Source: a virus. From it: 64,000 nucleotides of DNA. Each line of letters opens with the position of its first letter. Position 1 is the stretch's first letter. Below the pieces are notes generated by a model. It did no database searches, was not told where the DNA came from, and saw only the letters and a list, made by a program, of their open reading frames with translations. Made by a program: the position numbers and the translations under genes. Of the stretch, positions 11,047 through 40,259 are shown one piece after another. The stretch covers positions 16,255-80,254 of IMG/VR virus record IMGVR_UViG_3300010885_054390, one strand, 5' to 3'.

Positions 11047-11940
11047 ATGACAACCAAACGTTCCAACGCCTCGGACTCCTCCAAGGCAACACAAGTATTC
11101 CCGCTAACCTTCGAGAAGTTCCTCGAGATTGCGGGAGACCCCGACCCCGACCACAACAGCCGTTACAAGTCTGCGAACCAACAGCCCACGTCCAAGACAT
11201 GGGCAGACGGAGTCGACTACTTCGAGAGCGTAAGGCGTCTCAAGATCGGCTGGCCAGAGGGCGTGAAGAAAGCCCGTGAGTTAAGCTCGAAGCTCTATTC
11301 ACGTTTAAACGCCGAGTACAGCTTCCAACGTGACATCAAGTTCGACACGACTGGTGACTGGTTCGACATCGGACGAGTGCTTGAAGGTGAGCCCGATTGC
11401 TGGGGTTCCGAGATCGAGCTTGACGACGAGTTCTCCAATGACAAGCGTGGGAAGATCGTTCGAGTGGCAGTGAATGTCGGGGCGTCCTGCTCCTATAGCT
11501 CGGAGCAAATCCTCCAACGGGGAGTGTATGCCCTCGCCATCGTCGACCTACTCGAACGACTGGGCAAGAGCGTCGAGCTCACGGCCTCATGCAAGGTGGA
11601 GAAGAACGGCAAAATCTGGGGCTGGGAATTGCCCTTGAAGCAAGCGGGAGAAGAGCTCTCCCTTGACCGAGTGGCACACATCCTCGGTAGCCCTGCTGGC
11701 TTTCGCCGAAGCTGGTTCCGAGTCATCGAGCACACTGACTACCCCGATTGCGGAAGCGGTCTCGGATGCCCTACAGACTGGACGGAGAGCGAGCTCAAGC
11801 AACGTCAGGTGGACATCTACATCGGAGCGTTGTTCTCGGGGAACACCCCTTGGCAGGGCAAGACGGACACGAAGTTCATCATCGAGCAACTGGCCAAGGC
11901 GGGCATCAAGTTAGAGCGTGAGGAGGATGCGAAGGCATAA
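11047..11940 (+). CDS. vWA-like partner of the MoxR-type ATPase (degenerate MIDAS)
   Basis: G.WFDIGRVLEGEPDCW, VRVAVNVGASCS, ALAIVDLLERLG.SVEL; position directly after the AAA+ gene. Confidence 0.65.
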   Translation: MTTKRSNASDSSKATQVFPLTFEKFLEIAGDPDPDHNSRYKSANQQPTSKTWADGVDYFESVRRLKIGWPEGVKKARELSSKLYSRLNAEYSFQRDIKFDTTGDWFDIGRVLEGEPDCWGSEIELDDEFSNDKRGKIVRVAVNVGASCSYSSEQILQRGVYALAIVDLLERLGKSVELTASCKVEKNGKIWGWELPLKQAGEELSLDRVAHILGSPAGFRRSWFRVIEHTDYPDCGSGLGCPTDWTESELKQRQVDIYIGALFSGNTPWQGKTDTKFIIEQLAKAGIKLEREEDAKA

Positions 11941-11994
11941 CGGATTTGGGCAGTGGGTACTGGTGCTCGTGAGGTTCGAATCCTCACGGCATCG
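11926..11994 (+). ncRNA. degenerate tRNA-like element
   Basis: Perfect T arm GTGAGG-TTCGAAT-CCTCAC and partial acceptor GATGC/GCATC; no canonical D or anticodon arm. Confidence 0.35.
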
Positions 11995-12028
11995 GTTAAA
12001 CGAAACACGAAACATAGGAGCACGAACA

Positions 12029-12298
12029 ATGAAAAGTTTTGCATCATTCGAAAAACAATACAAGCCGACCAAGCGTACGCCGACAGCGGACGACCCTAGC
12101 GACGACATCCTCTTCGAAACCTACGGAGAGGACGAACAGCTAGTGCGGAGGACGAACCCGAAGCACGTTTGGACACTGCTCGACGGCGAGCACGAAACAA
12201 TCATCTGTGCTGGTATGCACTTCTGCAACCGCATCAACTACCTCATAACGGAGACCGCATGGGACGATAAAAACCTATGCTTCCGCTATGTCGACTAA
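12029..12298 (+). CDS. conserved phage hypothetical protein
   Basis: AGGAG RBS; FETYGED...VWTLLDG....AGMHF.NRINYLITE pattern. Confidence 0.7.
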   Translation: MKSFASFEKQYKPTKRTPTADDPSDDILFETYGEDEQLVRRTNPKHVWTLLDGEHETIICAGMHFCNRINYLITETAWDDKNLCFRYVD

Positions 12299-12311
12299 AG
12301 GAGAACGAACA

Positions 12312-12521
12312 ATGGACAAATCAATCTACTCACTTGCGGACATTCAAAACATCTGCGACACCCACGAGTGGTCAGCACTCGTAAACATAGGCGGGGGACA
12401 AATAGAGGTGAGCGTTTACGACGATAGCGATGGCTTCGGCGTATTCACCCCCACTGAAATCGATGCGGAGACGTACACCTTTAGGTTGTATGACTGCCCA
12501 TCAAAAGGAGAAAACAAATGA
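12312..12521 (+). CDS. small acidic hypothetical protein
   Basis: AAGGAG RBS. Confidence 0.6.
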   Translation: MDKSIYSLADIQNICDTHEWSALVNIGGGQIEVSVYDDSDGFGVFTPTEIDAETYTFRLYDCPSKGENK

Positions 12522-12676
12522 CACGAGGCGACACACTGCGAAAGATTAGAAAGTTGACGTCATTCAAATCCGACATCGGGTTTGCAAACCTTGGACACGG
12601 AGAGGCAATCAGCCTCATCGAATGCGTCAACAAACTGGCTACACAAGCCCTACAGAAAGGAAAAAAGAAAAAATGA
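12518..12676 (+). CDS. hypothetical protein
   Basis: AAGGAG RBS; ATGA overlaps at both ends. Confidence 0.55.
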   Translation: MTRGDTLRKIRKLTSFKSDIGFANLGHGEAISLIECVNKLATQALQKGKKKK

Positions 12677-13067
12677 AACGAACCATTGAGATCGAAGACA
12701 CCCTCGAGGAGCGGGTGGCGAATGCCATCGAAAGCGTACAAGACGAACTCAAGTCCTACGTCGAACAGAATCCCGAGACTGAAGAGCTCCCATGTTTAAA
12801 CAACGACTTGGACTACAGCGGTGCCATCCATGAGATCGTCGACGGAGCGGTGCCCATCTACACCTACGAGATCGAAACCACATGGTTCCTCCATGCAAGA
12901 GAGCTCGAGAGTGCCTACGAGAATGCGGGGCTCGGAGACAACCCCCGAGAGAACAACGGCATGAGTGCCATCTACTGCTACATCATGGAGCAAGTGCAGG
13001 AATGGTACCACAAACACGGCGAGGAATACTTCGAAAAGCTCCCGAAAGGAAAAAAGAAAAAATGAAA
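12655..13067 (+). repeat. 24-bp direct repeat flanking the ocr-like gene
   Basis: GAAAGGAAAAAAGAAAAAATGAAA at 12655-12678 and 13044-13067. Confidence 0.8.
12673..13065 (+). CDS. ocr: Ocr-like (T7 gp0.3) anti-restriction DNA mimic
   Basis: AIHEIVDGAVPIYTYEI versus T7 Ocr AIHMAADNAVPHYYADI; YENAGL versus FEDSGL; IMEQV versus IYEQL; very acidic. Confidence 0.8.
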   Translation: MKRTIEIEDTLEERVANAIESVQDELKSYVEQNPETEELPCLNNDLDYSGAIHEIVDGAVPIYTYEIETTWFLHARELESAYENAGLGDNPRENNGMSAIYCYIMEQVQEWYHKHGEEYFEKLPKGKKKK

Positions 13068-13220
13068 GACGCAACCCAAATCATCGAGGAGATCGAGGCA
13101 CGACTCCTTGAGTACACAAACCTCGGCATCGATCATGCGAACGACCAGAACGCAGTGAACGAGCTCGAGAGTGCCGTAAACGAACTCCAACACCTACTCG
13201 AATGGATAAAACAAAAATGA
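13062..13220 (+). CDS. hypothetical protein
   Basis: ATGA overlap; acidic, helical. Confidence 0.55.
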   Translation: MKDATQIIEEIEARLLEYTNLGIDHANDQNAVNELESAVNELQHLLEWIKQK

Positions 13221-25626: not shown

Positions 25627-25950
25627 ATGAAATGGTCGGTACTAAAACAAAAGCTGGCAAAACTGTCCCAAATTGCGTCCCAAAAGGCAAATCTAGAAAA
25701 TCACGAGGGCTCGGTAAAAGATCTAAATAAAGCAATCGAAGACGAGAATATCGTCGAAATACCCGAACAACTTTACGTATTCTTCCTTATGGAAAGGAAG
25801 TATCTTTTGGCTAACCTTGACGCCATGCAAAAAGTTATAGCCGCAGCCAAAAATTACAGCTCGGATGAGGTCGGGGAGTGTTGCTTTAAGGACTATATTC
25901 AGTCTTTAGATGAGCTTTACAAGTTTTATACCGAAGTCGGACTTCTCTAA
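25627..25950 (+). CDS. hypothetical protein
   Basis: 107-aa ORF convergent with the giant gene. Confidence 0.55.
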   Translation: MKWSVLKQKLAKLSQIASQKANLENHEGSVKDLNKAIEDENIVEIPEQLYVFFLMERKYLLANLDAMQKVIAAAKNYSSDEVGECCFKDYIQSLDELYKFYTEVGLL

Positions 25951-28900
25951 TTCTTCTGCCTGCTTAGCTCTTCATTGTAAGCCTTGCTTACGCCCATAAT
26001 AATCTCTTTTTGCCTGTCTTTTAGAGCTTTGATTTCGGCGGAGCGATCATCGCCACCCTCCTCGGATTGCTTCTGAATAGCTTTGAGTTGTTGCTTAACC
26101 TTCTGAAGCTGGCCGCTAGCGCTTCTAACAATCGGATAAACGTTAATTTCCGCAGCGTATTTTTCTGACGCTTTTTGCGCTCCTTCGGTATCGCCCCGTC
26201 CACCGAGTAGTTTCTGCTCTTCAATGGCAGTGTAGGCAGCCTGTCGAATTGCCGAAAATCTTTCGTAGTCAGCGTAGCTTGGTTGTTCGCCTACGAACCT
26301 GCGGAGGATCGGGATGTCGTTTAACCCAAGGCTCTCATTCGGATTGAGAATTTTCTCCGGTAGCGAAGCCACACGAAGGATGGTCGATCCAACTGCACCG
26401 GTCAGATAGCCCGCAAAGTAGTCCATATATTCTGGCGAGAACGACAAAGCTCCCTCGCGAACTTCATTGCCGCCGGAGATTTCGTTCATAAACTTTGTTA
26501 AGTGTTTAAACGCAGGAGTTACACTGTTGAAGTATTTCTCTGAAGCCGGCGTGGGTGAGGCGTCGCCGGGGAAGTCGGAGGGCGTGATTGGCCTGCCCGC
26601 CCAGTCTTGGTTTAAATAAATATCTGTCAAAGGCTGGAAAACTGTGGGCGTAAGTGATGATAGTAGGTTTCTAGCCCCGCCGATGGGGTTAAAGCTCTCC
26701 ATAAGAGTTTCGGCCATTCGAACTGCCGTATTCCCGTTTGTCTTCTTACCTAGCACCAAGTCGGACAGAATGTTTCCAGTGTGCCAAAAAGTGTTGTACC
26801 CGTAAGGCAACGGGAGGGATACGTACCTTCCCTTGGTTCCGGGGAGCATAATAATGATGTTTGTACGCTTTTTAAACTCGGGAACCTTTGACCAAAAGCT
26901 TTCGCCATCCTCATCATCTCCACCCGAAGCCTCGTTAAACATACTGGCCAACAACCCAGAGGTCACCGCCCCAACTGCTAACTTCCGAACCTTCGGAGAG
27001 GTTGCCACCGACTGCACCAGTCTGGCCGAGCCCTGTAGGGAGGCATTAAAGAACAAATAGATGCTGTTAAACACCGGCCCAGCCTCGCCCTTCTTCGTAA
27101 AGTTTACGGTAGCGTTTCTGGCAATCGCAGCGGCCTGCTGATCGGTGGCTCCCAATTCTCTTGCGTGATGAAAGACGGCTAAACGAGTGGCATTTTCTAC
27201 GCCCCCGTTCATTTTTTCAATCCAATTAGATGATGCCTTTAGAAACTTTTGAGCTGAGTTGGGGTCTTTCCCGTCCACAATCTTTTGAATGTCTTTTATC
27301 TGTGTTTCAATGTCCCCGGTAACCCATCCAATTAGCTTTCCGCCGGCCTTCAAGAAAGCTCTGTAGCTGTCGCCCCACTCATCTTGAGTAGAGTTGGGGT
27401 TAAATTCTTCCGCCAGCGAAGTCCGAAGCGGTTTTAGCGAAAGCACTGACTTCACTACCCTACCGGATAAATCTTTATACTGTTCCGCAGATAAGTTGAA
27501 GGCTGCGGTCTGTAAGTCTCGGATCGGATTAGTAAAGAAGAACTCCGGGCTAAGGCCAGTCCGGGTAATTGAAAGCAAACGGTTAAACGTTGCCAAGGCC
27601 CCCACTACTTTGCTCGACCAATTCTCGCTATTGATGCCCCCGTTTTTAAGATTTCGAACAAGATCGGGGTTTTTAATCCGGATAAACTTGGTCTCCCCGT
27701 TAATTTTTGTAGCAAAAATATCGTCTTGGTTCATCCAAGTTGGGTCAATAAAGTCTCTGGCGTATTGGAAGGCCTCTCCTGATTCTGGATCTTTTCTGGT
27801 TACTAGCCTCCGAACTGTCTGGGGCTTCGCAATCTCCCATAGATCGCTGTCGGGGTATGCCTGCACCAACTCATAAAGGGCATTTCCGAGAACGTTCTTT
27901 TCCGCTCTGACGATACCCGCTGCGGCACTATTCATTGCATAGGCTAGAATATTTTCTGCCCTGCTCAGACGACCTAAGGTCGGCTTAACTTCTTCACCAC
28001 GGATATTAAATCCTTTTCCAGTGGCTTGCCCGCTAGTAGCGATTTCTTCCGCCGTGGCTCCGGGGATTCCCTTTAGCGGAACATAATCTTTATACCTGTC
28101 GGTAAGAGCCTCGAATAAGGGTCGGGAGATCAATCCTTCGTCTAAACGTTGTCGGAGGGCCCCGTCAATCATTTGCCGGATCATCTGGCGGGACTCCTCA
28201 AGCTGAGTGGCTCTATCGTCAGCCTTGTACTTGGCGATCAAATCGTCTGCCTCTGCGTCGGTCATTCCCGAGCCTCTTTCGTGAAGTTGTTCTATGTATT
28301 CTTTGTTCTTCTTGGCCTTGTTGTATTTGGCGAGCTCTTCTGGTGTTGCGTCCTCTCCGGGGAAATAGGGCTCTGGGGGCATGGGATTGATAAGTCGGAT
28401 ACGTGCGTTCCGCTCTTTCGCGTGCAGGGCGTACATAAACTCCTCAATCTCGGCTGTCGAGATTCCCGAGCTCCTAAGCTTTTGAAGAATGGGCTCGACT
28501 ATGTTTTCGTTGAAGTCAGTTAGGCGTGCTCCGACCTTTCCGTGGTAGAGCTCCTCAAGTTGATAGGCGTTTAAACTGTCTGGCAGCGGCTCGCCAATTT
28601 GTTTCTCAATGGATTCTTGGATCTTCTTTAAGTCAATAAACCTATCTTGCCAAAATCTTCTCAGGCCGAGGATTTTGTCTGCATTCGTCACATACTTCCC
28701 GAGAAGCTCTCTAGCAAATCTCGGCAAGAAAGGAACTTTGCTTTCGTCAAAGAACACTTTGTTTTCCGGTTGGTACTTGAATCCACCAATAGGGGCCGCG
28801 CCTAAAATGTCGGGCGAAGAAGTGAAGTCCGAGTTCAGTCCATTTGCGAGCTTTAGCTGGTCTGCATTGAAAACGACAAACCTTGAGTTCTGTGCTTTAT

Positions 28901-31900
28901 CATCCGTATTGGCTTCTCCTAGTTCAATGGAGTCAAAGCCAAAACCTTTGAGCACCCCTTGGAAAAATGTATTCGCGAAGGCTGTGGAGTCTGCCAAGTG
29001 CGGGTAGCTTTGCTCCTCAATCGCATCGGCTGTAGTTTTAATTCTTTCGGAAACTTCAGATAGCTTCATTCCAGTTTGATCTGCAATAGCCTTCGAAAGC
29101 ATTGGGACAATCGCCTCTTTAATGAATACCGAGCCATCAAAGACGTGCTCTGGAACCGAAGCCATTCGCAACGGATTCTCCGCCCTTACAAAAACAGGCG
29201 TTTTCATTCTTGGCTTGCCGTCTTTTTGATAGGCCTGCGCTACGGAGAATTGAACGTCATCTGCCCTGACCTGATCTCGGCTATATGTCAACGCCCCGCC
29301 CGGGGTGCTTAGAGTATTAGGGGCTCTAATATCGGAGGTTGCTACGTAGTATTGAACTGCGGGGCTTCCGTCTGGTCGAGTCACCTTGCTGTTCCCGAAC
29401 CAGTCTTTAAATTCTTTGAGCTTTGTAACTAAGTTTAAAACTTCGGAATCGGGAGTTGCCTTCAAAAAGTAAGGTAGGCGACTCGCAATAAAATCTCTTG
29501 ACGCTGGGGAAATCGACGGGAAGACCTCATGGGTCAAGACAGCCGTAAGAGCTGGCACCGAATCTCCTTTAAAAATTGTACGTAGGCGGTCGAAGGTGCC
29601 CCTATCTAACCCCTCTTCTTGGAAGTCAGCGACAACTTTCTCCATTGTATTGTTGAAGGCCTCGGCTGAATTCCTGAACTTCTCAATTTGTTTAAACAGA
29701 TCGTAGTTCCTGCGGCGGAAGTCGGGGTTGTCCAATAAGCCAACACGATAGTTTCCGTTTTCGTCTATTTGGTCGTCAGCCTCTAAATATGATTCTTCGA
29801 TTCGGCGTACGAAAGAATCAATAAAAGCATTCTTACGGATAGCTTTTTTATAATCAAAGGCCTTCCCGTTAAGGAAAACCGGTTTCTTTGCGTAGCCAAC
29901 AACCTTTGCCAACTGCATCTGCTGTTCGTCTGTCGGCTCTTTCGGCCCAGTAACCTTCAGGCCAGCGTCAGAGACCTCAACCTGAAGCCAGTTTTTCTTA
30001 AAGTTAGAAAGGTCTTTCTTGGAGAACAGCTCTGTTTCGGAAATTGAATCGAAGTTTCCGCCCTCAATTAAAGCTCCCTTTGCGGTCATCAGACCGCTCA
30101 CCGGGTTCTCTGGGTTAAACGTTGTGGCTCCAATTTCAGTAAGTTCTATTTCGCTCGGCTCAATTGGAGTAATCCTCGCAGCATGAAGCCTGTCTCCGTA
30201 AACAATCTCTTTTGCGTCTTCAAAGGTAGCTCCGTTTGCCGTCTGCAAGAACCTCACTAAATCCTCCGACGGAACATACTTCGCAACAAAAGATGCTGCG
30301 TCTTTCAGGATTTCAGGGGAACCATTAAAGCGATAGGCTTCCGCCAGCTTTTTGTAGGCATCATCAAACAAGACTCTTTCGGCTGTTCCGTTTTTGGGGA
30401 CTTGCGGTAGCCTGCCGCTCGCAAATTTATTCGCGTCTAAACGATTTGCGGCCATGTAGCCTTCGTCCGGACTTAGCTTTGCTGTCTCTACATAGGTAAA
30501 CTTTCCATTGCTCTCCATCAAAGCCAAATTACCGCCAACTCCGGGCATCATAACAAATGCCTCGCCGGCCTTGGTACGCATTAACGGAACCTTGAACATC
30601 GAAGCAGTCGCGGCGAGAACTCGATCTTTGTTCTCTGAAGAGGCGTTAATTGCCCTTAGCAAATTGGTCTGAAAGCTTTCTTTCGTAGAAGCGCTAAAGC
30701 TCCCCAATAGGTCGTTCCAAAAATCAAGGACTGCCGTATTATTTTCAAAGACGCTAAAATCAGATATTACATTTTGAAGAGTCCTATTTTTTTCGTTTAC
30801 GTCAGTCCAATAGTTTTCACTCTCCATCTTTCTAGCAAAGGACATCTTCTGGAAACCCTTCATGCGTCGCAATGGGAAATTAAATCCCGCTACCGACCTC
30901 AAAAGCTGTTGGGATGGAGATGCGGCCCCAATGGTTGTATCTTGCTTGGGAGCTTCGACTTCCCAAGGAGCAGGTTCGTTTCTTCGGATCTCCGCTAGTC
31001 TCTTCTGTTCGGCTAAATACTTTTCATCGTCTTTCTTTACACCGGAGTAATTCAATTTCTTTTCCGGGTACATCATCTCCGGAAGAAGCTCAATTTCTTG
31101 TGCAGTCATACCCGGAAGTCGCTTGCCAGTAATCGGGTCGTACTCAGGTGCGCTACGCTTTGCGTAGGTTTTCGCCATAATAACAAGCTCAACTTCGGGT
31201 ATTCTTTGCCACTTCGTAAATTCTTCCGGAAGAAGAGCTACTTTTTGCTTTGCGTACGGGGCCGTTCCTTTTTCCGATTTAATATCTGAGTTGAGCAAGG
31301 AGTATCTGTGCGGGCCAAAGTTAAACCAACTATTCTGCCCCCTTGTTTCCGTTGTCAAAGCCCTCTGTGCATTGTCGGAAAACATCTGAGAATGCTTGAT
31401 CCAAGCATTTTCTTCCCCTCGGGGCCCGAAGCCGTAACCCTCTGCGGCGTGACCAAATAGGTCGTGAATTGCACGCAGTTTCTCGTTTAAACTTACTCCG
31501 TTTTCGTCTCGCTTTCCGAGGTAGGGGTGAGATTCTCCGCCAGTAAAATAGAACAACCGATTGTTGGAGCGAACATCCTTCCGCATTTCGGAAGAAGTTT
31601 CGTAGGGCTGACCTTCTTTTGTCCAAGGCTCAAAACGCATCCCCATCTTTTCTGTGGCAAACTTCCATTGCTCTTCAATCTCAGAAGCTAAAGATTCGTA
31701 GGCTTTTTTAACTTCTTCGGAAGGATCAAAGTCTGGAAGGTTTTCGTAGGCTTCCGCAATCTTAGTTGCCTCCTCTTTTCTGACTGGAACCCAAATGTGA
31801 TCCACCATAATCGGGCCACGGCGGGATGCCTCTTTGGCCTGTCTAAGTAGTCTGGCGCTGGATTGCGCCTTGCTCCAACCCCTTACGCGCCGATTGGCTT

Positions 31901-34900
31901 GCGGCGAGGCCGATTCTCCAACTGATCCTCCTCCGATAGCGGCCCGACTGACTCCGAGATGATAAGCCGCGAGCCCTTTGGTGAAATCGTCGGGGATGTC
32001 TTGTAGCCGATTCCCAAGTTGCTCAAGAAGTCCGGAGTAATCTTGTTGCTCGATGACTTGGATTTGTCCGAGCTCACTACGGGCTTCTTTGATGAGACCT
32101 TTGTAGGCTTCGAAGAACTTAGTGATTCTGTCTTGAGTTTGTTCATTTTGTTGTACTCCTAAGTAGAGGGTATTAGAGGCGGTGTCAATTCCGAACCCGT
32201 CTTCGAAGCCAAGCTTTCTAGCGTTGGCCACAAACTTGTTTAAACCGGATCGGTCTTTAAAGACAATCTCGTGCTCTACATCTGTGGGGTTAGTTACGTT
32301 AGTGTCGAAAATATAGACCGCCCTTTGAACTTCGGGGGTAGAAAACGGATTGGAGGCAAGCAAGGCCGCAAGGGGCTTGGGATCGCCCTCCGGAAGAGTG
32401 AATACAACTGACGGCTCCAATTGTAGCCCAACGTCTGGATTGTCCCATCCACCAACAGTATTTGTTGGGTCAGTTATGTTGTAGCCGAAGATCGAAGCAA
32501 GTTTCATTAGGTTCTTGCCACGCTTGGCAAACCTAGTTTCCGCCAAATTGTCTGCATTCTTCAGGCTCTTAAAGTTCCTATCGCGCATTGCAGCGACGGC
32601 GACCTTGGCGGCCCCAAAGATGTCCATCTCTCCGACGACATTCGAGATCTGGCCGGGAGTAAGCGGTTTAAACAGCGTTTTGCTTTTTGCGGGCCACCTA
32701 TCGTGAACTACGCCAAGCTCTAAGGAAATTGCTTTTTGAATCAATAGATCGATTTGGTCTCTACCGGGCTTGCCCTCCAAGAGAATATTGTTTCCGTCAT
32801 TCGTCATGCGGAGCCATCCACGGCTAAACATTTCATTGTTCACATTCTTGCCGAGGCTGTATCCGTATTTCTGCTGAAGGTCTTTATAAATTTCAGGCTC
32901 GTTCTCTTGGAGCCACATAATCATTTCGCCGGCGTGACTATCCATAGAATCCATTCCCTCGTAGCGAATTGCGGAGCTTTCTACTGGAATAATCTCGCCC
33001 TTTGGCCCCATCCAATAAGGATCGAAGTCGGGAAGTTTATCAATGGCTTTTGTGTTTGGCTCAGGGGTGATCTTAGCTGCGCCGAGAACGTCTCCCAAGC
33101 GATAGCGCTTCAGGCCAAGTTTCTTTAAAATTCCGGGGCTGGCATTTGCAAAACGAAGTGTTCCGATTTCTTTTATCATCGAAGGCCGAAGCGTTTCCGA
33201 CATCCACTTTTCAACTCGTTCCCTAGCCCTTTGCCTTCTTTTCTTTTCCCCCGAAGAAAGATTCCTAGTTCTGGTAGCATCCTTTTCGGACTCAAAGTAC
33301 CCTGTGATCTCAATCTTCTGTGAGTAGGGATTAAACTTTGCCTGTAGGTTTCCACGAAAGACGTTGTCGAAGATTTCTTTTTCGGCTCCCGTAAAAGGAG
33401 CTTCCGCAATAATCTTGTTTAGCTTTTGCCCTACGCTTTCTTTGCTTTCGCGACTAATTTTATCAAGGATCTCCGGCTCAACAGAAAGCACCGCTTGTCC
33501 ATTTTCATCGAAGGCTGCGTCCGTATACTCCGGAACTTCTTGCGATTCGATTGTATCTGGTACCTGCTCCCCCAGCCTATCGCCCCAGTTTGCCGTTACA
33601 GCCGTTTTAGCCTGCCCTGTTTCAGGATTTATGCTCGCTACCTTTTGGCTTTCATCCATTGAGTCAGTAAACGTCGGGGCATTGGGGTCTTCATCTGGGA
33701 GTACGGTGGCTTGGTCTTCGACGGAAGCGTCTATTTGAGGGGTTACGTCTTCCTCCATTTGGGGGTCGCTCTGCTCGTCAACTTGCTGTTGAATCGGCGT
33801 TTCGGTTTTATCTGACGGGCCTTTTTTCAGCTTTTGCTCTAATTCAGTGCTGATTAAACGCGAAAGTTTGTTCTTGATGGAGCGGAACACGGCTGTTTTT
33901 TGTTCCTCCTTACTGCCATTCTCTGGGAAATTTGTCTCTCGGGATGCGGTCATCAAATAGATAAGAGCTTCGTTTGCAACTTCGGAAGGGGTCTTAATGC
34001 CCATTCTCTCTAGCTCAAACTTGAACACCGGATTATTTCGAATGTATCCCGCAAAATACTTAACGGTTTCATTCACCATCTCCGGGTCATTAATGAGCGA
34101 GTCCAAGATCTTGTCGGCGTTCGGGTTTACATCCTCACCCATCTTGCTGTTTACGGTTACATCAATAGAATTGAAGTATTGCCCCTGTGCCGCTTCCTGA
34201 CCTCTCGGCGTCTCTCTTGTAACGGGAGCCGCGCCTAATGTCTCTTCATCCTCTGGAATAGACAAGGTTGGCTCGTCGGGCATTTGAGCTTTTTGTTCTT
34301 GAGGCTTTGATTTACCAACAAAAGCCTCGAAGGATGGAATAGGTACTTCGTCACCTTCTTTTGCCTTCACAATACTGTCACGAATCATCTGCCGGTACTC
34401 TGTTAGCTTCTGCGAGGCCTGCACCGGATCGCCAAGTATCTTTTTTGCAACTAAATTGCGGATTGTAGTCTCTCGTTTTTGAAGAGTTGCTGAGTCTTTC
34501 TTGCGGTCTTTCCCATCCCGACGCCTACCAGAATCATAGGCATCCGCGCTATTTTGATCTGGGAATACCAACCTAACGCTCCCGTACTTTCCGCGAGCCT
34601 GAAAGCGTTTAAGCGAAGAAGGGTTTACCTTTGCCGGAGTTTCTTTTTTTGCTGGCTTTGGAACTGGTGTCGCTTTTGCCTTCGGAGCTGGCGCCTTAAT
34701 CTTTTCGGCTTCTATTTCTTTCCGAATGTTGTCCCTAACAACGTTTAAAGCATCGAGCTGACGGTATCTGTCTTGCTCCAATTCCACTTCGTCAGGAACT
34801 GGGGACGCTTCAATCTCGGCAATCTTGTTTGAGGTTTCGTCAAACTTTGCTTGAAGCGTTGCAAGCCTTGAGGGCTGTTGCGGCTCTAATGTAGCAGGGA

Positions 34901-37334
34901 CAGCTTCTGAACCTTGCGTAGAAGCGTCTGGTTGAAGGGTCTCGAGAGGAGTGGCAGTTTCTTGAGGTTGGCCCTCTCCTTTTGTTTCGACGGGCGCGAC
35001 TGCGGCTGTAGCTGTTGTTGCTGCTTTTTTTGAGCTTTTCTGGAAAATTTTCTCAGCTTTTTGTTTTTCATCTAGCAAACTATTAATAGCCTTTAAATGC
35101 TCCTTTACAACAGGCGAGTCTTTTGAGAGCCCGCGAACCGCACGTTGCCAGTAATCCTTCGCTGAAAGAAGGGACTCCTCCAAGATTCCGGCCTTCTGTT
35201 TGTCCATGTCTTTTCTGTTTTGCCAAGTATCTTCTGTGGTGACTCCAATCTTTTTCCTTTGAATCAACTGGCGAACAAACTCGCTGTAAAGATTGTTGCC
35301 GCTAAGATTCTCGTCACCGTATTGAGCGCGGGTGTCGCGGATTTCTTTTTCTGTCATCTGCGAGGCACCCTTTTCACCAAACTCTTTTCTCCACTGGCTA
35401 AAGGAAGTTTTATTTGGGTCTACCTCTCCGCGATTGATGGCCTGCTGATAAAGGTTTGCCCTTGCCTTTGTCATGTCTGTGTCGTGAATCAACTCTTCTG
35501 CCATTGCAGATATTAGATACGTTTGTCGCCTTTTTTCGGCTAGCTGTGCGTTACCACCCTTTTCTCCCTTAACTTTTTGGTCAATGCCTGAAAGCTCTTG
35601 CTTGAGAAGATCTAGGTTTATTTGAACTGTATTTTCTTCATTGGTATCAATAGAGAAAGCCCTGTTATTGTCAGAAAACTTAATTGTGATCGGCTTGTCT
35701 GGGTTTGCTCCGAGCACATTGTAAGCTTCCTTCATTGCCATCCCGGTAAGCCTTTTTGCGCGGTTAAACGCGGACTCTTTTTGGGTGTTGTCTAGGCCGC
35801 TATGTAGGCTGTCAAAAGACTCCCTATCAAAAGTAAATGGGTTGTTGGCTTGTTCCTGCTCATCCCCCATTAGCTTAGTCATCAAGTTACTTTGATTCCG
35901 GAAATCTTGCATGGCCAAAGCCATTGATGTCTTGGGCGCGAAGTTGCGAAGCCTTTCAGCGACTAAGTCCGCCCTAGAAGATCCTCTCGCTGCTGCGATA
36001 ACCGGTGCTCCACCTCCGACCTCCAAAGCGCCCTCCATAGCGATTGCATTTGGGTCTGTAATGTCTCCGTAGGCCAACTGCTGGCTAAGCGCCTCTCCAC
36101 CCATTCCGCCCGTAACCTCAGTTAAAAATAAACCGCCAGTTTCAGCTACCTTCCGAAGCCTGCTTACCCCTTTTAGGCCAGCCTTTACAGCGGTGCTCTC
36201 GAAGGCGGAGGATAGCCCAAAGGTGGCAAGAGCCGTTAGCCCGTCAACAACGCCCACCGGAACGCCCTTTTCATTTGCGGCCTGCTTAACCTTGCCCATC
36301 AGCTCTTCGTTCTGCATTGCTGCGACAAGTTGCTCGGGGTCGTTTACGTTAATCCCGTCAAAGCCGGGTGTGGGATCTTTTAAAGGCTCCTTGCCATTCT
36401 TTACCCGCTCAATGTTCTTAGCCCGAATATCCTTTTGAATCTCGCCACTCAAAAGCCCCATTAACGTCCCCGAATATTCCAGCTCGTAGGAGCTCTTTCC
36501 TGTAGCGGTGGCTACGCCCGTCCTGAAGCCCTGCTTTGCGCCTTGAATGGCCCCCGGAATCGCGCCCACACCGTCAAAGGCGACTCCCACCCCAGCACCA
36601 ATTCCCGCCCCAGCAAGGGTCTGCCCCACAATGGCGTCTGCATTAGTGGCAATCTTTGGGGTAAGCATCGAGAGCTGCTCGACCATAGCCCCAGCAAAAT
36701 TGGGTAGAACCGACTTCGACAAAAAGATGTCCCCAACTGTTTCCTTTGGCGGGGCCAGTTTTGAGATCTCTTCGTTTAAACGCTTAACATCTGAGGCGGC
36801 TTTTTCCATGCCGCTTTGATCTTTTTCAGCCGCAGCTTTTTCCAAGGCTTCGGTGGCCTCGGACAATTGGTACTGCTTAAATCCGTAGGTTCCGCGCTCA
36901 AAAAGTTCTGGGCCATTAAAAACGTATTTCTCCAAGACGTTTCTGTCGGGCCTGTCCAACTGGAAGGCCTTCTCAATCTGTTTAAACTGATCGTTAAGTT
37001 GTTTTCTGCCTGTTGCCGTTTGGAGGGCTCCCGTTGGCTCAACGGCTTGAAGAGTTTTTCCGCGCCAAGTGTCAAAGAGTTCTTTTTTCTTTTCGAAGTC
37101 AGCCTTATCAAAGTTTGAGGCTACCTGATAATCGTTCCAGCTTTGAGGCCCGTTTTGTTGAGCCGGCTCTGTCGCAACCTGTTCTGCTGGGACCTCTTGC
37201 GAGGCTTCTTCCGCTGTAGCTAGCGATGAAAGTTTTTGATTTATCTCCGGTGTAAGCTTGTCGAGCTCTTCTTGAGTTATGTCTTCGGGGAGGTCAAGGT
37301 TCACTTGCCCCCTACCGGGGATGTCTACTAACAT
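25947..37334 (-). CDS. giant polyvalent internal virion/ejection protein (3795 aa): peptidase-like, sigma-like, HD-GH, degenerate ART and LPD38-like modules
   Basis: Last gene of the virion module; C-terminal LPD38-like motif (FWSKVPEF.K..N......SLPLPYGY), FKDWFGNSKV ART-PolyVal-like start, AEELIH, sigma-like segment aa ~1037-1416. Confidence 0.85.
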   Translation of the reverse strand: MLVDIPGRGQVNLDLPEDITQEELDKLTPEINQKLSSLATAEEASQEVPAEQVATEPAQQNGPQSWNDYQVASNFDKADFEKKKELFDTWRGKTLQAVEPTGALQTATGRKQLNDQFKQIEKAFQLDRPDRNVLEKYVFNGPELFERGTYGFKQYQLSEATEALEKAAAEKDQSGMEKAASDVKRLNEEISKLAPPKETVGDIFLSKSVLPNFAGAMVEQLSMLTPKIATNADAIVGQTLAGAGIGAGVGVAFDGVGAIPGAIQGAKQGFRTGVATATGKSSYELEYSGTLMGLLSGEIQKDIRAKNIERVKNGKEPLKDPTPGFDGINVNDPEQLVAAMQNEELMGKVKQAANEKGVPVGVVDGLTALATFGLSSAFESTAVKAGLKGVSRLRKVAETGGLFLTEVTGGMGGEALSQQLAYGDITDPNAIAMEGALEVGGGAPVIAAARGSSRADLVAERLRNFAPKTSMALAMQDFRNQSNLMTKLMGDEQEQANNPFTFDRESFDSLHSGLDNTQKESAFNRAKRLTGMAMKEAYNVLGANPDKPITIKFSDNNRAFSIDTNEENTVQINLDLLKQELSGIDQKVKGEKGGNAQLAEKRRQTYLISAMAEELIHDTDMTKARANLYQQAINRGEVDPNKTSFSQWRKEFGEKGASQMTEKEIRDTRAQYGDENLSGNNLYSEFVRQLIQRKKIGVTTEDTWQNRKDMDKQKAGILEESLLSAKDYWQRAVRGLSKDSPVVKEHLKAINSLLDEKQKAEKIFQKSSKKAATTATAAVAPVETKGEGQPQETATPLETLQPDASTQGSEAVPATLEPQQPSRLATLQAKFDETSNKIAEIEASPVPDEVELEQDRYRQLDALNVVRDNIRKEIEAEKIKAPAPKAKATPVPKPAKKETPAKVNPSSLKRFQARGKYGSVRLVFPDQNSADAYDSGRRRDGKDRKKDSATLQKRETTIRNLVAKKILGDPVQASQKLTEYRQMIRDSIVKAKEGDEVPIPSFEAFVGKSKPQEQKAQMPDEPTLSIPEDEETLGAAPVTRETPRGQEAAQGQYFNSIDVTVNSKMGEDVNPNADKILDSLINDPEMVNETVKYFAGYIRNNPVFKFELERMGIKTPSEVANEALIYLMTASRETNFPENGSKEEQKTAVFRSIKNKLSRLISTELEQKLKKGPSDKTETPIQQQVDEQSDPQMEEDVTPQIDASVEDQATVLPDEDPNAPTFTDSMDESQKVASINPETGQAKTAVTANWGDRLGEQVPDTIESQEVPEYTDAAFDENGQAVLSVEPEILDKISRESKESVGQKLNKIIAEAPFTGAEKEIFDNVFRGNLQAKFNPYSQKIEITGYFESEKDATRTRNLSSGEKKRRQRARERVEKWMSETLRPSMIKEIGTLRFANASPGILKKLGLKRYRLGDVLGAAKITPEPNTKAIDKLPDFDPYWMGPKGEIIPVESSAIRYEGMDSMDSHAGEMIMWLQENEPEIYKDLQQKYGYSLGKNVNNEMFSRGWLRMTNDGNNILLEGKPGRDQIDLLIQKAISLELGVVHDRWPAKSKTLFKPLTPGQISNVVGEMDIFGAAKVAVAAMRDRNFKSLKNADNLAETRFAKRGKNLMKLASIFGYNITDPTNTVGGWDNPDVGLQLEPSVVFTLPEGDPKPLAALLASNPFSTPEVQRAVYIFDTNVTNPTDVEHEIVFKDRSGLNKFVANARKLGFEDGFGIDTASNTLYLGVQQNEQTQDRITKFFEAYKGLIKEARSELGQIQVIEQQDYSGLLEQLGNRLQDIPDDFTKGLAAYHLGVSRAAIGGGSVGESASPQANRRVRGWSKAQSSARLLRQAKEASRRGPIMVDHIWVPVRKEEATKIAEAYENLPDFDPSEEVKKAYESLASEIEEQWKFATEKMGMRFEPWTKEGQPYETSSEMRKDVRSNNRLFYFTGGESHPYLGKRDENGVSLNEKLRAIHDLFGHAAEGYGFGPRGEENAWIKHSQMFSDNAQRALTTETRGQNSWFNFGPHRYSLLNSDIKSEKGTAPYAKQKVALLPEEFTKWQRIPEVELVIMAKTYAKRSAPEYDPITGKRLPGMTAQEIELLPEMMYPEKKLNYSGVKKDDEKYLAEQKRLAEIRRNEPAPWEVEAPKQDTTIGAASPSQQLLRSVAGFNFPLRRMKGFQKMSFARKMESENYWTDVNEKNRTLQNVISDFSVFENNTAVLDFWNDLLGSFSASTKESFQTNLLRAINASSENKDRVLAATASMFKVPLMRTKAGEAFVMMPGVGGNLALMESNGKFTYVETAKLSPDEGYMAANRLDANKFASGRLPQVPKNGTAERVLFDDAYKKLAEAYRFNGSPEILKDAASFVAKYVPSEDLVRFLQTANGATFEDAKEIVYGDRLHAARITPIEPSEIELTEIGATTFNPENPVSGLMTAKGALIEGGNFDSISETELFSKKDLSNFKKNWLQVEVSDAGLKVTGPKEPTDEQQMQLAKVVGYAKKPVFLNGKAFDYKKAIRKNAFIDSFVRRIEESYLEADDQIDENGNYRVGLLDNPDFRRRNYDLFKQIEKFRNSAEAFNNTMEKVVADFQEEGLDRGTFDRLRTIFKGDSVPALTAVLTHEVFPSISPASRDFIASRLPYFLKATPDSEVLNLVTKLKEFKDWFGNSKVTRPDGSPAVQYYVATSDIRAPNTLSTPGGALTYSRDQVRADDVQFSVAQAYQKDGKPRMKTPVFVRAENPLRMASVPEHVFDGSVFIKEAIVPMLSKAIADQTGMKLSEVSERIKTTADAIEEQSYPHLADSTAFANTFFQGVLKGFGFDSIELGEANTDDKAQNSRFVVFNADQLKLANGLNSDFTSSPDILGAAPIGGFKYQPENKVFFDESKVPFLPRFARELLGKYVTNADKILGLRRFWQDRFIDLKKIQESIEKQIGEPLPDSLNAYQLEELYHGKVGARLTDFNENIVEPILQKLRSSGISTAEIEEFMYALHAKERNARIRLINPMPPEPYFPGEDATPEELAKYNKAKKNKEYIEQLHERGSGMTDAEADDLIAKYKADDRATQLEESRQMIRQMIDGALRQRLDEGLISRPLFEALTDRYKDYVPLKGIPGATAEEIATSGQATGKGFNIRGEEVKPTLGRLSRAENILAYAMNSAAAGIVRAEKNVLGNALYELVQAYPDSDLWEIAKPQTVRRLVTRKDPESGEAFQYARDFIDPTWMNQDDIFATKINGETKFIRIKNPDLVRNLKNGGINSENWSSKVVGALATFNRLLSITRTGLSPEFFFTNPIRDLQTAAFNLSAEQYKDLSGRVVKSVLSLKPLRTSLAEEFNPNSTQDEWGDSYRAFLKAGGKLIGWVTGDIETQIKDIQKIVDGKDPNSAQKFLKASSNWIEKMNGGVENATRLAVFHHARELGATDQQAAAIARNATVNFTKKGEAGPVFNSIYLFFNASLQGSARLVQSVATSPKVRKLAVGAVTSGLLASMFNEASGGDDEDGESFWSKVPEFKKRTNIIIMLPGTKGRYVSLPLPYGYNTFWHTGNILSDLVLGKKTNGNTAVRMAETLMESFNPIGGARNLLSSLTPTVFQPLTDIYLNQDWAGRPITPSDFPGDASPTPASEKYFNSVTPAFKHLTKFMNEISGGNEVREGALSFSPEYMDYFAGYLTGAVGSTILRVASLPEKILNPNESLGLNDIPILRRFVGEQPSYADYERFSAIRQAAYTAIEEQKLLGGRGDTEGAQKASEKYAAEINVYPIVRSASGQLQKVKQQLKAIQKQSEEGGDDRSAEIKALKDRQKEIIMGVSKAYNEELSRQKN

Positions 37335-37340
37335 GACGTT

Positions 37341-39041
37341 TTATCCCACTCCGTAACCTTCAAGGGTAACGTCTACCATTCTAACTCCCTTTCGAGTAGT
37401 AACTTTTCTAAAAACTTTTCCGTCGATAACTTGCAGGTTGGGGTCGTTAGCAATCTTCACATCACTAGGATTAGAGAAACCGCTTGGGCTATACAATATT
37501 TTTCCTTTAGTTGAGCCAAGATCATTTGTTTCCTTTTTTGGGGTTGGCCTTACGGGAGCTACTGCATCTTGGCCCGCCTCAACTGCAACTACTGTTCCGT
37601 CTTCCTTGCGAACAAACTTTAATGAAGGAGTAGTGGAGCTGCTTGATTTTTTGGGGGCCGGCTGTTGTTGTGGTGCGGGAGTTGCTGGCTGGGCCTGTTG
37701 TTGCTTCGGTGCTGGCGCACCCGAAATTACATTCGGAACCGCTCCCCCGGTCTTCTTGGCTCCCTTTGCTGCCATAATCCGCTCGTAGCCGACTGTCTTT
37801 GGCAGGTTCGGATTAGAGTTTAGTTTATCAACGTAGTCGCTTTCGTACGAAGCAAGTTTTCCCTCAAGTTGTTTTTCGGTTACCGCTACTTGAGTTTTTG
37901 GGTCTGTATAGGTAGTCACGCCTGCTGACTTCATTGCTGCGAGCTGTGCGTTTACTTCCGATATATTTTTTTCAATATCGTCTAAGCTTTTTTTATCTTC
38001 AATGGCCATCTTTCCGGCAAAGCTTTCTCCCGTGGATACGCCAGTCGGAACTGTTCCCTCAACTTCAACACCTTTCGGGCCAGTAGTAATTTTGGAAGTC
38101 TTGATTCCGACGGCCATGTTATTAGACACTCCTTCACGAAGCAGTTTTCTTTGTTTAAACGTATCGGGATTAAACTGGCTGGCCTCGTAAACAAGTTGCC
38201 CAATTTCCTCTGGATCTGGCTTGTTGTGATCCATGTTCAGGAAATACTTTTGCATTTTGTTCTTAAGCATAAATGCTTTTTCAAATTCTTGCTGACTCAT
38301 GTCTTCTCGGAAGCTTAGGGCGGCATTAAGGTTCATTCTTGAATCGGAAAACTCTTTAATCGTTGATTCTTTGGCCTGATACAAATCTGTTGCTCGCGCT
38401 TCTTTTCTTGCGTCATCCAAAACTTTTTCAAAGGCAGAAGACATTTCCGGACTGTATCGGGTTTGACCGGTTGCGTCAGTAAATTGAGACATTGACGGAT
38501 CGGCCCTCATTGTTTCCAATTCTTTATAGGCAAGAGCTCCGTCTTCACCTCCGCTTTTAACTCGCGCTACCAAAGAGCCGAGTCTGTCCTTAAAGTCCAT
38601 TAGCTTTGGCGTTCCAACTCTTGCGGCTGCGTATTGGTCGACCGCCTCTGCTGTTTTTAAAGAGTTTAGCTGAGACTGGTTGCGAAGATTCTCGGTTGCA
38701 ACCACTTGCTGGGTGTAGCTTTGAGCAGTTTTGAGGGCTTCGATCTGACGAAGGTTCGCGAAGAAGTTATTCCCACTTCCGTCGTTTACTGGATACAGAA
38801 TGTTGTTTATACGATCTTCTTCCGCTGATCTGCGAATATCCTGCATTTGCTTCATTGCTTGGAGCTGTTGCATTTGATTCTGTTGATAAGCGCCCTGAAG
38901 CTGGACGGCTCCAAGGGTAGACTGGTTTTGACGAATTTGCTGATCGGTATAAAGATTCGGATCTCCGTACTTGTCCCACCCTTGTTCGCGAAGTCGGAAA
39001 GCTTCTTGTAAAAATCCTGAGTTGAAGTTAGCGTCTGGCAT
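37341..39041 (-). CDS. internal virion (ejection) protein
   Basis: Gln-rich helical protein directly upstream of the giant gene, the typical podovirus ejection-protein position. Confidence 0.6.
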   Translation of the reverse strand: MPDANFNSGFLQEAFRLREQGWDKYGDPNLYTDQQIRQNQSTLGAVQLQGAYQQNQMQQLQAMKQMQDIRRSAEEDRINNILYPVNDGSGNNFFANLRQIEALKTAQSYTQQVVATENLRNQSQLNSLKTAEAVDQYAAARVGTPKLMDFKDRLGSLVARVKSGGEDGALAYKELETMRADPSMSQFTDATGQTRYSPEMSSAFEKVLDDARKEARATDLYQAKESTIKEFSDSRMNLNAALSFREDMSQQEFEKAFMLKNKMQKYFLNMDHNKPDPEEIGQLVYEASQFNPDTFKQRKLLREGVSNNMAVGIKTSKITTGPKGVEVEGTVPTGVSTGESFAGKMAIEDKKSLDDIEKNISEVNAQLAAMKSAGVTTYTDPKTQVAVTEKQLEGKLASYESDYVDKLNSNPNLPKTVGYERIMAAKGAKKTGGAVPNVISGAPAPKQQQAQPATPAPQQQPAPKKSSSSTTPSLKFVRKEDGTVVAVEAGQDAVAPVRPTPKKETNDLGSTKGKILYSPSGFSNPSDVKIANDPNLQVIDGKVFRKVTTRKGVRMVDVTLEGYGVG

Positions 39042-39053
39042 AATTAAAACCCT

Positions 39054-40259
39054 TTAGTTGGCCCCGCCGAACAAAGAGCCGGCGAGAGATCTACTACTTG
39101 TACCGAACATTCCACCCAAAAAATCTCCGTAGGCGCTGAACATATTGCCCATATTTGCAGACTTTCTTGACCCACCCAAGCCACCCGCTGATCCGTAATA
39201 ACCTGAAAGTCCCGGGTCGTAATAGTTCCCGCCAGTCCCGCCCCCTTGAGTCCCAACAAATACTGGCATTGTAGAAGCTCCCGTCGGGGCTGTGGTCAGA
39301 TACTTTTGCTGATTGCCTGCAATCATTGTTGGGTTTGAGGCCGCAACCGAAGTAGGCACTATATTTGCATTCGACATTGCCTGCATATTAGGCCCAGCTC
39401 CTAGCATTTGGTAAGTTGGATTCTGAAACTGAGGCATAGACATCATTTGCTGCGGGGCAGCGTTTGTTCCACCTCCGTAGCCACCGTACCCGCCGCCAGC
39501 GCTTCCAAGTCCAGTGGAGCCGCCCATTCCCAAAGCGTTTAAACCTTGCTGTGCCATTCCGCCTGCGAGTCCACCGGCAAACATATTTGCGGCTCCGCTA
39601 ATTGCATTAAATGGAGCTGTTACAACCGAACTTACCATATTAAATGGAGCCGATACAATTGATCCGATGGTATTGCTAACCAAGTTCTCAAAGGGGCTCT
39701 TGAGCTGAGAGTTGTAGTACGCAATCTGCTTGTTCTGATTATTAATGTTATTGTTGTAGTAAGTCTCTTGGTCAATTCGGTTAGCCAAAGTCCCAAAGTC
39801 TACGCGATACTGGGAGCCGGAACCCTCGGGCGTTAGAGCCCTGCCAAAATCTAACATTTGACTTGTATAGTTTTGGCCCTGCTGTTGAAGGTTTAAACGT
39901 TGTAGGCCTAAGTTTTGGAGCAAGTCAAACTGCGTCATTTCTCCGGCAGCCGTACCTCTTCCGCTTAGCCCAGCGTAAGCGGCATCTTTTTGAAGTCCGT
40001 ACAAAGTGTCGGCTGGTAGTTCCCCTTTTTGGAAGGATTGAGCTATTTCGCCAAACCGGCCCATGTTAGATTCCAGACCGGGAACCGCACTATAGACGTT
40101 ACTTTGGTAGGCTTTGTTAAAGTCATCGGCAAGCTTTTGATACCTACCCCAAGGTTGGGCCAAGTATTCGCTGTTTATAAGGTCTGAATTTGGTCGTATT
40201 TGAACGGGGCTGTACGACGGCATTGAAGGCGGTTTACTGAAAAAGTCAAAAAAGCCCAT
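39054..40259 (-). CDS. Gly-rich internal virion/DNA transfer protein
   Basis: Gly/Ala/Met-rich amphipathic segments; position in the ejection cluster. Confidence 0.6.
   Translation of the reverse strand: MGFFDFFSKPPSMPSYSPVQIRPNSDLINSEYLAQPWGRYQKLADDFNKAYQSNVYSAVPGLESNMGRFGEIAQSFQKGELPADTLYGLQKDAAYAGLSGRGTAAGEMTQFDLLQNLGLQRLNLQQQGQNYTSQMLDFGRALTPEGSGSQYRVDFGTLANRIDQETYYNNNINNQNKQIAYYNSQLKSPFENLVSNTIGSIVSAPFNMVSSVVTAPFNAISGAANMFAGGLAGGMAQQGLNALGMGGSTGLGSAGGGYGGYGGGTNAAPQQMMSMPQFQNPTYQMLGAGPNMQAMSNANIVPTSVAASNPTMIAGNQQKYLTTAPTGASTMPVFVGTQGGGTGGNYYDPGLSGYYGSAGGLGGSRKSANMGNMFSAYGDFLGGMFGTSSRSLAGSLFGGAN

Follow-up and report, generated by a model that had tools for sequence, protein, structure and literature searches.

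A repeated LGAA-type peptide marks the module borders of a giant polyvalent protein of a tailed phage and may be a protease recognition site

Phage-type polyvalent proteins are giant multi-module proteins, and their processing into separate functional units was proposed by Iyer, Burroughs, Anand, de Souza and Aravind in 2017 (PMC5512222). In that work, LPD38 was found only in the phage-type members, and a zincin-like MPTase domain, present in about 36% of the members and as an HExxHxxD variant in the phage-type ones, was put forward as the processing enzyme; no cleavage-site motif was given. Here we analysed a giant protein of 3,795 amino acids (aa; ~420 kDa), which is encoded by a single open reading frame (ORF) at 25947-37334 on the minus strand of a 64,000-nucleotide stretch of viral DNA, referred to as the window. 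The window comprises bases 16255-80254 of an 80,254-bp contig, the IMG/VR record IMGVR_UViG_3300010885_054390, whose source is an uncultivated tailed phage. A short peptide of the LGAA type occurs at six places in the giant protein, and comparison with the related sequences identifies it as a conserved, clade-specific mark of the module borders, with whole modules exchanged between phages exactly there.

Judged by its domain content, the giant protein is a phage-type polyvalent protein. It shares with the described members the multi-module build, the position among the virion genes, an LPD38 domain above the cut-off (PF18857, aa 3481-3676, nucleotides (nt) 26307-26894, 125.6 bits vs a cut-off of 27, E 3.2e-36) and possibly an ART-PolyVal domain (PF18760, a weak match of 22.7 bits vs a cut-off of 31.2); a precomputed PF18760 match is present in two relatives, P0006 and P0007. 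It differs in that a zincin was named in the published account (PMC5512222), whereas here a precise junction peptide was found and no recognisable peptidase domain.

The C-terminal part connects the giant protein to those of many other phages. By tblastn and PHROGs, aa 2893-3793 share homology with the last ~900 aa of giant proteins from Stx phages with short tails, from many Vibrio phages and from Ralstonia and Burkholderia phages. The tblastn matches had ~32% identity over 94% of the query with E values down to 1e-126, and 327 of the 344 phage records matched covered at least 80% of the query; the matching PHROGs were 14770 (E 1.3e-170) and 616. The LPD38 giants of the 933W/phi24B-, Bcep22- and Ralstonia GP4-like phages resemble the giant protein in this C-terminal homology, in being the product of the last late gene and in the lack of cysteine, whereas the junction peptide is confined to the window's own clade. 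The Stx2-86 protein (2,783 aa) is also encoded by the last late gene, directly before the integrase; unlike the giant protein it has the canonical zincin motif HEWFHSLD, and its N-terminal and middle parts are without detectable similarity to the giant protein. The Bcep22-type homologue (Bcep22 gp75) was named 'DarB-like' in the JC1 paper (PMC9144972). The phi24B protein gp47 (2,811 aa), with LPD5, LPD1, LPD38 and MuF-C metallopeptidase, is abundant in the virion by proteomics but not visible in the density of capsid or tail, and was proposed to be an ejection protein inside the capsid; the phi24B capsid protein is unprocessed (10.64898/2026.04.10.717836). The giant protein, too, probably travels inside the capsid and enters the host by ejection.

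That prohead proteases cut packaged proteins at a short consensus is long established. The T4 prohead protease gp21 cuts the internal proteins and Alt at such a consensus. The ejection proteins of phiKZ and SPN3US are reported to be cut by the prohead protease, again at a short consensus (PMC10052503, PMC5694885). The likeness to the present case lies in packaged, ejected precursors with a short recurring motif as the cutting site; the difference is that in those systems the motif is also carried by the capsid and scaffold proteins and a protease gene is present, neither of which was found in the window phage. In the genome the extended junction motif was found in the giant protein only and thus in no capsid, scaffold or portal protein, and no prohead protease gene was found with Pfam and PHROGs among the late-operon ORFs of at least 240 aa. 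In phage P1, DarA and DdrB are virion-delivered, defence-countering proteins, which are cited in the polyvalent protein paper as proteolytically processed before or during packaging (PMC5512222). They are separate, smaller proteins with single cuts, and are not known to carry a repeated junction code.

A search with aa 1000-2900 yielded nine full-length relatives, P0002-P0010, of 3,795-4,628 aa and 46-98% identity. In the light of these relatives, at least seven sections can be told apart in the giant protein, namely an N-terminal part, five modules (A-E) and a C-terminal part, with the motifs at their borders (window coordinates):

34239..37334, minus strand: N-terminal constant part, aa 1-1032, kept in P0002-P0010
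34227..34238, minus strand: junction motif 1, LGAA, in EET-LGAA-PV, aa 1033-1036
33087..34226, minus strand: module A, aa 1037-1416, confined to the clade, partly helical
33075..33086, minus strand: junction motif 2, LGAA, in GDV-LGAA-KITP, aa 1417-1420
32619..33074, minus strand: module B, aa 1421-1572, no known family
32607..32618, minus strand: junction motif 3, FGAA, in MDI-FGAA-KV, aa 1573-1576
30933..32606, minus strand: module C, aa 1577-2134, swapped in P0007-P0010
30921..30932, minus strand: junction motif 4, IGAA, in DTT-IGAA-SP, aa 2135-2138
30189..30920, minus strand: module D, aa 2139-2382, weak D123-like Pfam match below cut-off
30177..30188, minus strand: junction motif 5, LHAA, in GDR-LHAA-RITP, aa 2383-2386
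28806..30176, minus strand: module E, aa 2387-2843, weak ART-PolyVal match at aa 2698-2837
28794..28805, minus strand: junction motif 6, LGAA, in PDI-LGAA-PI, aa 2844-2847
25947..28793, minus strand: C-terminal constant part, aa 2848-3795, containing LPD38

An initial annotation of this DNA had listed the six motifs at aa 1033, 1417, 1573, 2135, 2383 and 2844, and all of them were verified at these codons, with the claimed acidic residue, D or E, at -2 or -3 in every copy. The nucleotide positions given for them were right, but the ranges span L-G-A-A plus one residue and not the eight residues quoted. The modules, which had been estimated at ~385, 155, 560, 250 and 460 aa, were found to measure 384, 156, 562, 248 and 461 aa. 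Moreover, the last motif had been placed right after an ART-like domain, and the weak ART-PolyVal match indeed stops at aa 2837, 7 residues ahead of site 6. The codons were said to differ between the copies, which is generally so, but sites 1 and 6 share TTAGGCGCGGC, a run of 11 bases. The DIRYS/DIRFS motif suggested for related proteins found no support, being absent from the giant protein and the Stx2-86 homologue and located at no junction in the other relatives.

Within the giant protein, [LIF]GAA was observed five times against 0.39 expected, and none of 5,000 shuffles reached five. All five GAA tripeptides of the protein are junction copies of [LIF]GAA with an upstream acidic residue, LHAA being the remaining copy. 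A longer pattern, GDxL[GH]AA[KR]ITP, is common to sites 2 and 5. Since the motif was picked after being seen and the giant protein contains further 4-mers with three occurrences, this count alone is weak, and the copies might be put down to chance, as a short word rich in alanine may come up repeatedly in a long protein that is itself rich in it (alanine 9.4%). The evidence from the relatives is stronger than the counts within the protein. All six sites are kept in 9/9 relatives, and the variants are conservative (LGAS, LGAG, FGVA, YGAA and [LYF]HAA, the last being site 5 across all relatives). When the six sites were compared in four divergent relatives, the identity at G, A and A was 0.96, 0.96 and 0.92, and that of the flanks was 0.41 in the 17 residues upstream and 0.51 in the 18 residues downstream. 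The consensus, derived from a pool of 41 pattern matches (~37 of them genuine junction copies), is [DNE]-[ILV]-[LFYI]-[GH]-A-[AGS]-[KR]-[VI], often followed by x-P. Six copies kept in relatives at about 50% identity and lying on homology breakpoints, together with the shuffles, effectively refute chance recurrence; it is excluded by these conservation data, and we regard it as scarcely credible.

The peptide is also restricted in its distribution. The motif was absent from the other long ORFs of the window and of the whole 80,254-bp genome, the extended motif being limited to the giant protein. Across 157 further polyvalent-type proteins (276,864 residues), 10 copies of the extended motif were counted, mostly without Asp; this corresponds to ~1 per 28,000 aa, compared with ~1 per 630 aa in the family, and is thus ~40 times rarer outside. 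An IGAA at a domain end in P0076, P0085, P0086 and P0101 belongs to another conserved domain (ELNIGA...KLDQRA) with weak alignment scores, and was rejected as support. Neither a single-segment query nor an alignment query of the IMG/VR viral contigs returned relatives, and a metagenome scan detected four family loci and added no new members.

Whole modules were found to change exactly at the peptide. The homology between the giant protein and P0007-P0010 ends at aa 1578, two residues beyond site 3, and is picked up again at site 4 (aa 2133-2138); in place of module C, these relatives carry 745-940 unrelated residues bounded by LGAAK[VI]. P0005 has a ~760-residue insertion between FGVAKI and LGAAKI. 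Furthermore, relatives with extra or different modules have added LGAAK[VI] copies at the borders of those modules. When all ordered pairs of six representatives were examined, a motif was no more than 10 aa away from 28 of the 98 interior BLAST segment ends, where 3.4 were expected and no more than 11 were reached in 2,000 randomisations, the test being weakened by the fact that the pairs are not independent. The remaining ends gather in the low-complexity tract ahead of site 1 and at borders of sub-modules within the variable region. HMMER, run with aa 1001-2200 against the whole library, returned 4,676 hits (E <= 0.001, among 50%-identity representatives), most of which match a domain at aa ~1840-2045, inside giant proteins or in free-standing proteins of 200-350 aa. 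The hits that span all of module C begin at query residue 575-589, which is site 3, and the first residues of P0155, a free-standing 476-aa homologue of module C, align with aa ~1572, again at site 3. The motifs as module boundaries, a claim of the initial annotation, are therefore well supported by their conservation in relatives at 46-60% identity, by the breakpoints on the motifs and by the start of P0155 at site 3.

As the module swaps stop at the motif, the peptide could be a structural or evolutionary seam that is read by no protein. It would then be the cap or first strand of the module starts, or else a footprint of cassette exchange that is kept only since recombinants joined elsewhere are non-functional. 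The pattern GDxL[GH]AA[KR]ITP of sites 2 and 5 could belong to a fold, and the helix modelled at site 3 also fits such a seam. However, the codons differ between the copies and 12 nt are too short to drive homologous recombination; moreover, the same 8 residues at 0.92-0.96 identity between unrelated folds, with the flanks drifting, point to selection by one external reader. We consider a seam of this kind quite unlikely.

Since the peptide is near-invariant between unrelated modules while its flanks drift, one external reader of it is indicated, and a site-specific endopeptidase appears to be the likeliest one. The pattern of a hydrophobic residue, three small residues, a basic and a hydrophobic residue, with a fixed upstream acid, resembles protease subsites; the release of modules would solve the problem of the differing targets of one polyvalent chain (PMC5512222); and module exchange exactly at the peptide is expected if the released pieces must stay intact. 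It is plausible that the junction sites are cut by such an enzyme, which we put at about even chances. The layout, a constant N-terminal part, five cargo modules and a constant LPD38 C-terminal part with a common peptide at every joint, would then be that of a precursor in which the peptide serves as the recognition site. Cutting would yield about seven pieces of roughly 114, 42, 17, 62, 27, 51 and 105 kDa, and could take place inside the capsid after packaging or after ejection. A single packaging/ejection signal could in this way deliver several independent effectors. A more far-reaching statement is that the clade packages an effector polyprotein with its own code, D-hydrophobic-L-G-A-A-K-V/I, that this code is read by a peptidase outside the known family models, and that the modules are traded as code-bounded cassettes; we offer it tentatively, a little short of even.

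The small residues G-A-A suggest that the cut would fall between the two alanines or adjacent to them. Ser-Lys-dyad and assemblin-type peptidases typically cut with Ala at P1 and a small residue at P1', and a hydrophobic P1' suits a zincin cutting before Leu, Phe or Tyr. A cut in front of one of these residues would thus fit a zincin-type enzyme, and a cut right after A-A would be less likely at the two sites with a following Pro.

Conservation and border position would fit any recognised linear motif, and the peptide might instead be left uncut, as a hinge or as a docking site for one common partner, with the protein acting as one chain. The partner could be the capsid interior, the portal, a chaperone or the constant C-terminal part, and the motif may order the chain inside the capsid or set the rate at which the chain is threaded through the tail. 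The empty protease searches speak for this explanation, and so do the N4 virion RNA polymerase, ArdC and TraC1, which according to the polyvalent protein paper are delivered uncut (PMC5512222), and the phi24B preprint, in which gp47 is treated as one very large ejection protein (10.64898/2026.04.10.717836). Nevertheless, small residues between hydrophobic ones with an acidic residue at -2 and a basic one at +4 form a typical endopeptidase pattern, a 420-kDa chain of unrelated enzymes with different targets is easier explained by release (PMC5512222), and no candidate binding partner is known. An uncut motif is accordingly rated as somewhat unlikely.

Several results weigh against cleavage at linkers between the modules. 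Two AlphaFold2 models, aa 1001-2200 and aa 2101-3000, were built from a 9-sequence alignment, and both were poor, with a mean predicted local distance difference test score (pLDDT) of 40 and 46, respectively. Scored in blocks of ten residues, the mean pLDDT around the six motifs is 24-34. Five of the motifs are coil (motif 1 with a block pLDDT of about 25), and site 3 was modelled as a helix, of low confidence. Because the models are poor and the alignment is small, the low pLDDT at the sites says little in favour of linkers, and the linker-like composition of the flanks, 0.60, is barely higher than the protein average of 0.56. None of the better blocks (aa 1068-1160, 1290-1390, 1470-1510, 1690-1750 and 2162-2379) holds a motif. 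The helical block aa 1068-1160 of module A reaches pLDDT 72-80, and the best defined folded block, aa 2162-2379 of module D (pLDDT 55-83), ends 4 residues ahead of LHAA. In the models, the motif placement thus agrees weakly with linkers. Foldseek gave no match of either model to the PDB at E <= 0.001, and no folds were named since the models are too poor. The family profile, searched against the PDB sequences, returned only spurious matches to 36-residue peptides, which were discarded.

On the same side of the balance, no gp47 fragments are reported in the phi24B preprint (10.64898/2026.04.10.717836), and the Stx2-86 homologue has no repeated LGAA. Split-gene forms of modules A+B and D+E were sought among shorter proteins, and only truncated ORFs, with an internal Met or at contig ends, were found. 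Furthermore, no peptidase family was detected with Pfam and PHROGs in the giant protein and the late-operon ORFs of at least 240 aa. A divergent protease beyond the family models may be present, and one conserved element of the N-terminal part was considered in this respect:

35475..35498, minus strand: EELIHDTD, aa 613-620, with E-E-x-x-H-D-x-D invariant in the family

This element resembles the HExxHxxD of phage-type zincin peptidases, and the HEWFHSLD of the Stx2-86 protein, with the first His replaced by Glu, the resemblance being unproven. Three short strands are predicted before it and a conserved Glu-bearing helix, LYSEF, after it, and all six junction sites lie downstream. The searches for a zincin in this region belong with the points listed above: aa ~545-700 had no Pfam match at E up to 5, and hhalign against 59 HExxH windows gave a probability of <=5.4%, with two alignments setting EELIH in register with HExxH. 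A hidden Markov model of the family region, searched against the 157 other polyvalent-type proteins and Stx2-86, matched nothing beyond the clade; starting from the HEWFH window of the Stx protein, jackhmmer recovered only one relative, and an ESM Atlas search for aa ~545-700 only unnamed viral clusters. On its conserved residues, the EExxHxxD region is no more than a candidate cis protease, as neither Pfam nor the profile comparison supports a zincin. A cis cysteine protease is excluded, since the giant protein has no cysteine, and a general prohead protease is unlikely, since the motif is in the giant protein only and the capsid protein of phi24B, the one relative examined, is unprocessed. 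On these grounds, an activity carried by the giant protein itself seems more likely than a general head-maturation protease.

A second E-E-x-x-H was noted at 28554-28568 on the minus strand (aa 2923-2927), as NAYQLEELYHGK in the giant protein and NAYMAEELFHGK in Stx2-86 (aa 1921); it is common to the clade and the Stx phages and stands at the start of the shared C-terminal module.

Two further observations concern motif-like sequence in the giant protein. A seventh, weaker site lies at 35997-36008 on the minus strand (aa ~446) in the Gly-rich N-terminal region, reading IAAA in the giant protein, IGAAK in P0002 and VGAA in P0007-P0010; the upstream Asp is missing, and the site may be part of a glycine-zipper-like hydrophobic segment. 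The stretch after site 1 (aa 1033-1049, 34190-34238, minus strand), GAA-x-x-x-R-[ED]-TPRGQEA, hardly varies among the relatives. It resembles the alphavirus nsP1/nsP2 cleavage junction (GA/A...ETPRG), which is probably a coincidence.

The absence of cysteine extends beyond the giant protein. The cysteine count was zero in 21 of the 22 library hits of 2,150-4,628 aa, the giant protein included, and two in the other; the Stx2-86 homologue is also without cysteine. The two ORFs directly upstream of the giant gene, 37341-39041 (minus strand, 566 aa) and 39054-40259 (minus strand, 401 aa), encode products with no cysteine and no family, compared with 5-13 cysteines in the replication genes of the same phage. 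This difference suggests that the giant protein and the products of the two upstream ORFs could be translocated or ejected proteins.

The sections of the giant protein differ in what is known of them. The N-terminal part has Gly/Ala-rich hydrophobic stretches at aa ~229-274 and ~360-460, an Ala/Pro/Lys low-complexity tract at ~800-1030, and a match to Pfam DUF6861 of 26 bits, slightly below the cut-off. A search for homologues of module A among shorter proteins found only P0023, a truncated fragment of a clade member. A sigma-70-like nature of this module was not supported, as Pfam at E up to 5 returned no sigma family and Foldseek no matching fold, although with so poor a model it may still hold. 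Module B is the most conserved middle module (15-aa block identity 0.56-0.87). The ~200-aa domain at aa ~1840-2045 of module C (window ~31200-31817, minus strand), with the sequence HDLFGH...GFGPRGEENAW, has PHROG 3170 ('unknown function') as its sole match and no Pfam family.

The giant gene is the final gene of the late (virion) operon on the minus strand, and the same-strand block upstream of it contains tail-fibre-like, virion-structural and lysozyme/amidase-like genes. The first 16 kb of the contig, ahead of the window, encode on the same strand more large unannotated late genes and the large terminase subunit:

11121-13130 of the contig, minus strand: large terminase subunit, ahead of the window

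Since the late operon runs off the window end and the terminase is located at the contig start, where the operon continues, the assembly appears to be circularly permuted or circular; an exact terminal repeat was sought in the 80,254-bp contig and none was found. Megablast of the phage DNA against 50,697 phage records detected no near-identical DNA.

Polyvalent proteins and the idea of their processing are already published. In full-text searches we found no literature linking LGAA to phage protein cleavage, none on the processing of LPD38 giant proteins, and no published account of giant ejection proteins of the LPD38 type with a defined junction peptide, or of peptide-bounded module exchange. 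The prevailing view is that a polyvalent protein brings in many anti-defence enzymes at once, which raises the question of how a single chain can act on targets at different locations. Self-processing by a zincin, the answer in the literature, came without mapped sites, and the junction peptide gives exact predicted fragment ends, sizes and point mutations. It also provides a practical rule for splitting giant proteins into functional units for annotation and expression. Furthermore, since no known peptidase was found, the peptide may lead to a new protease type.

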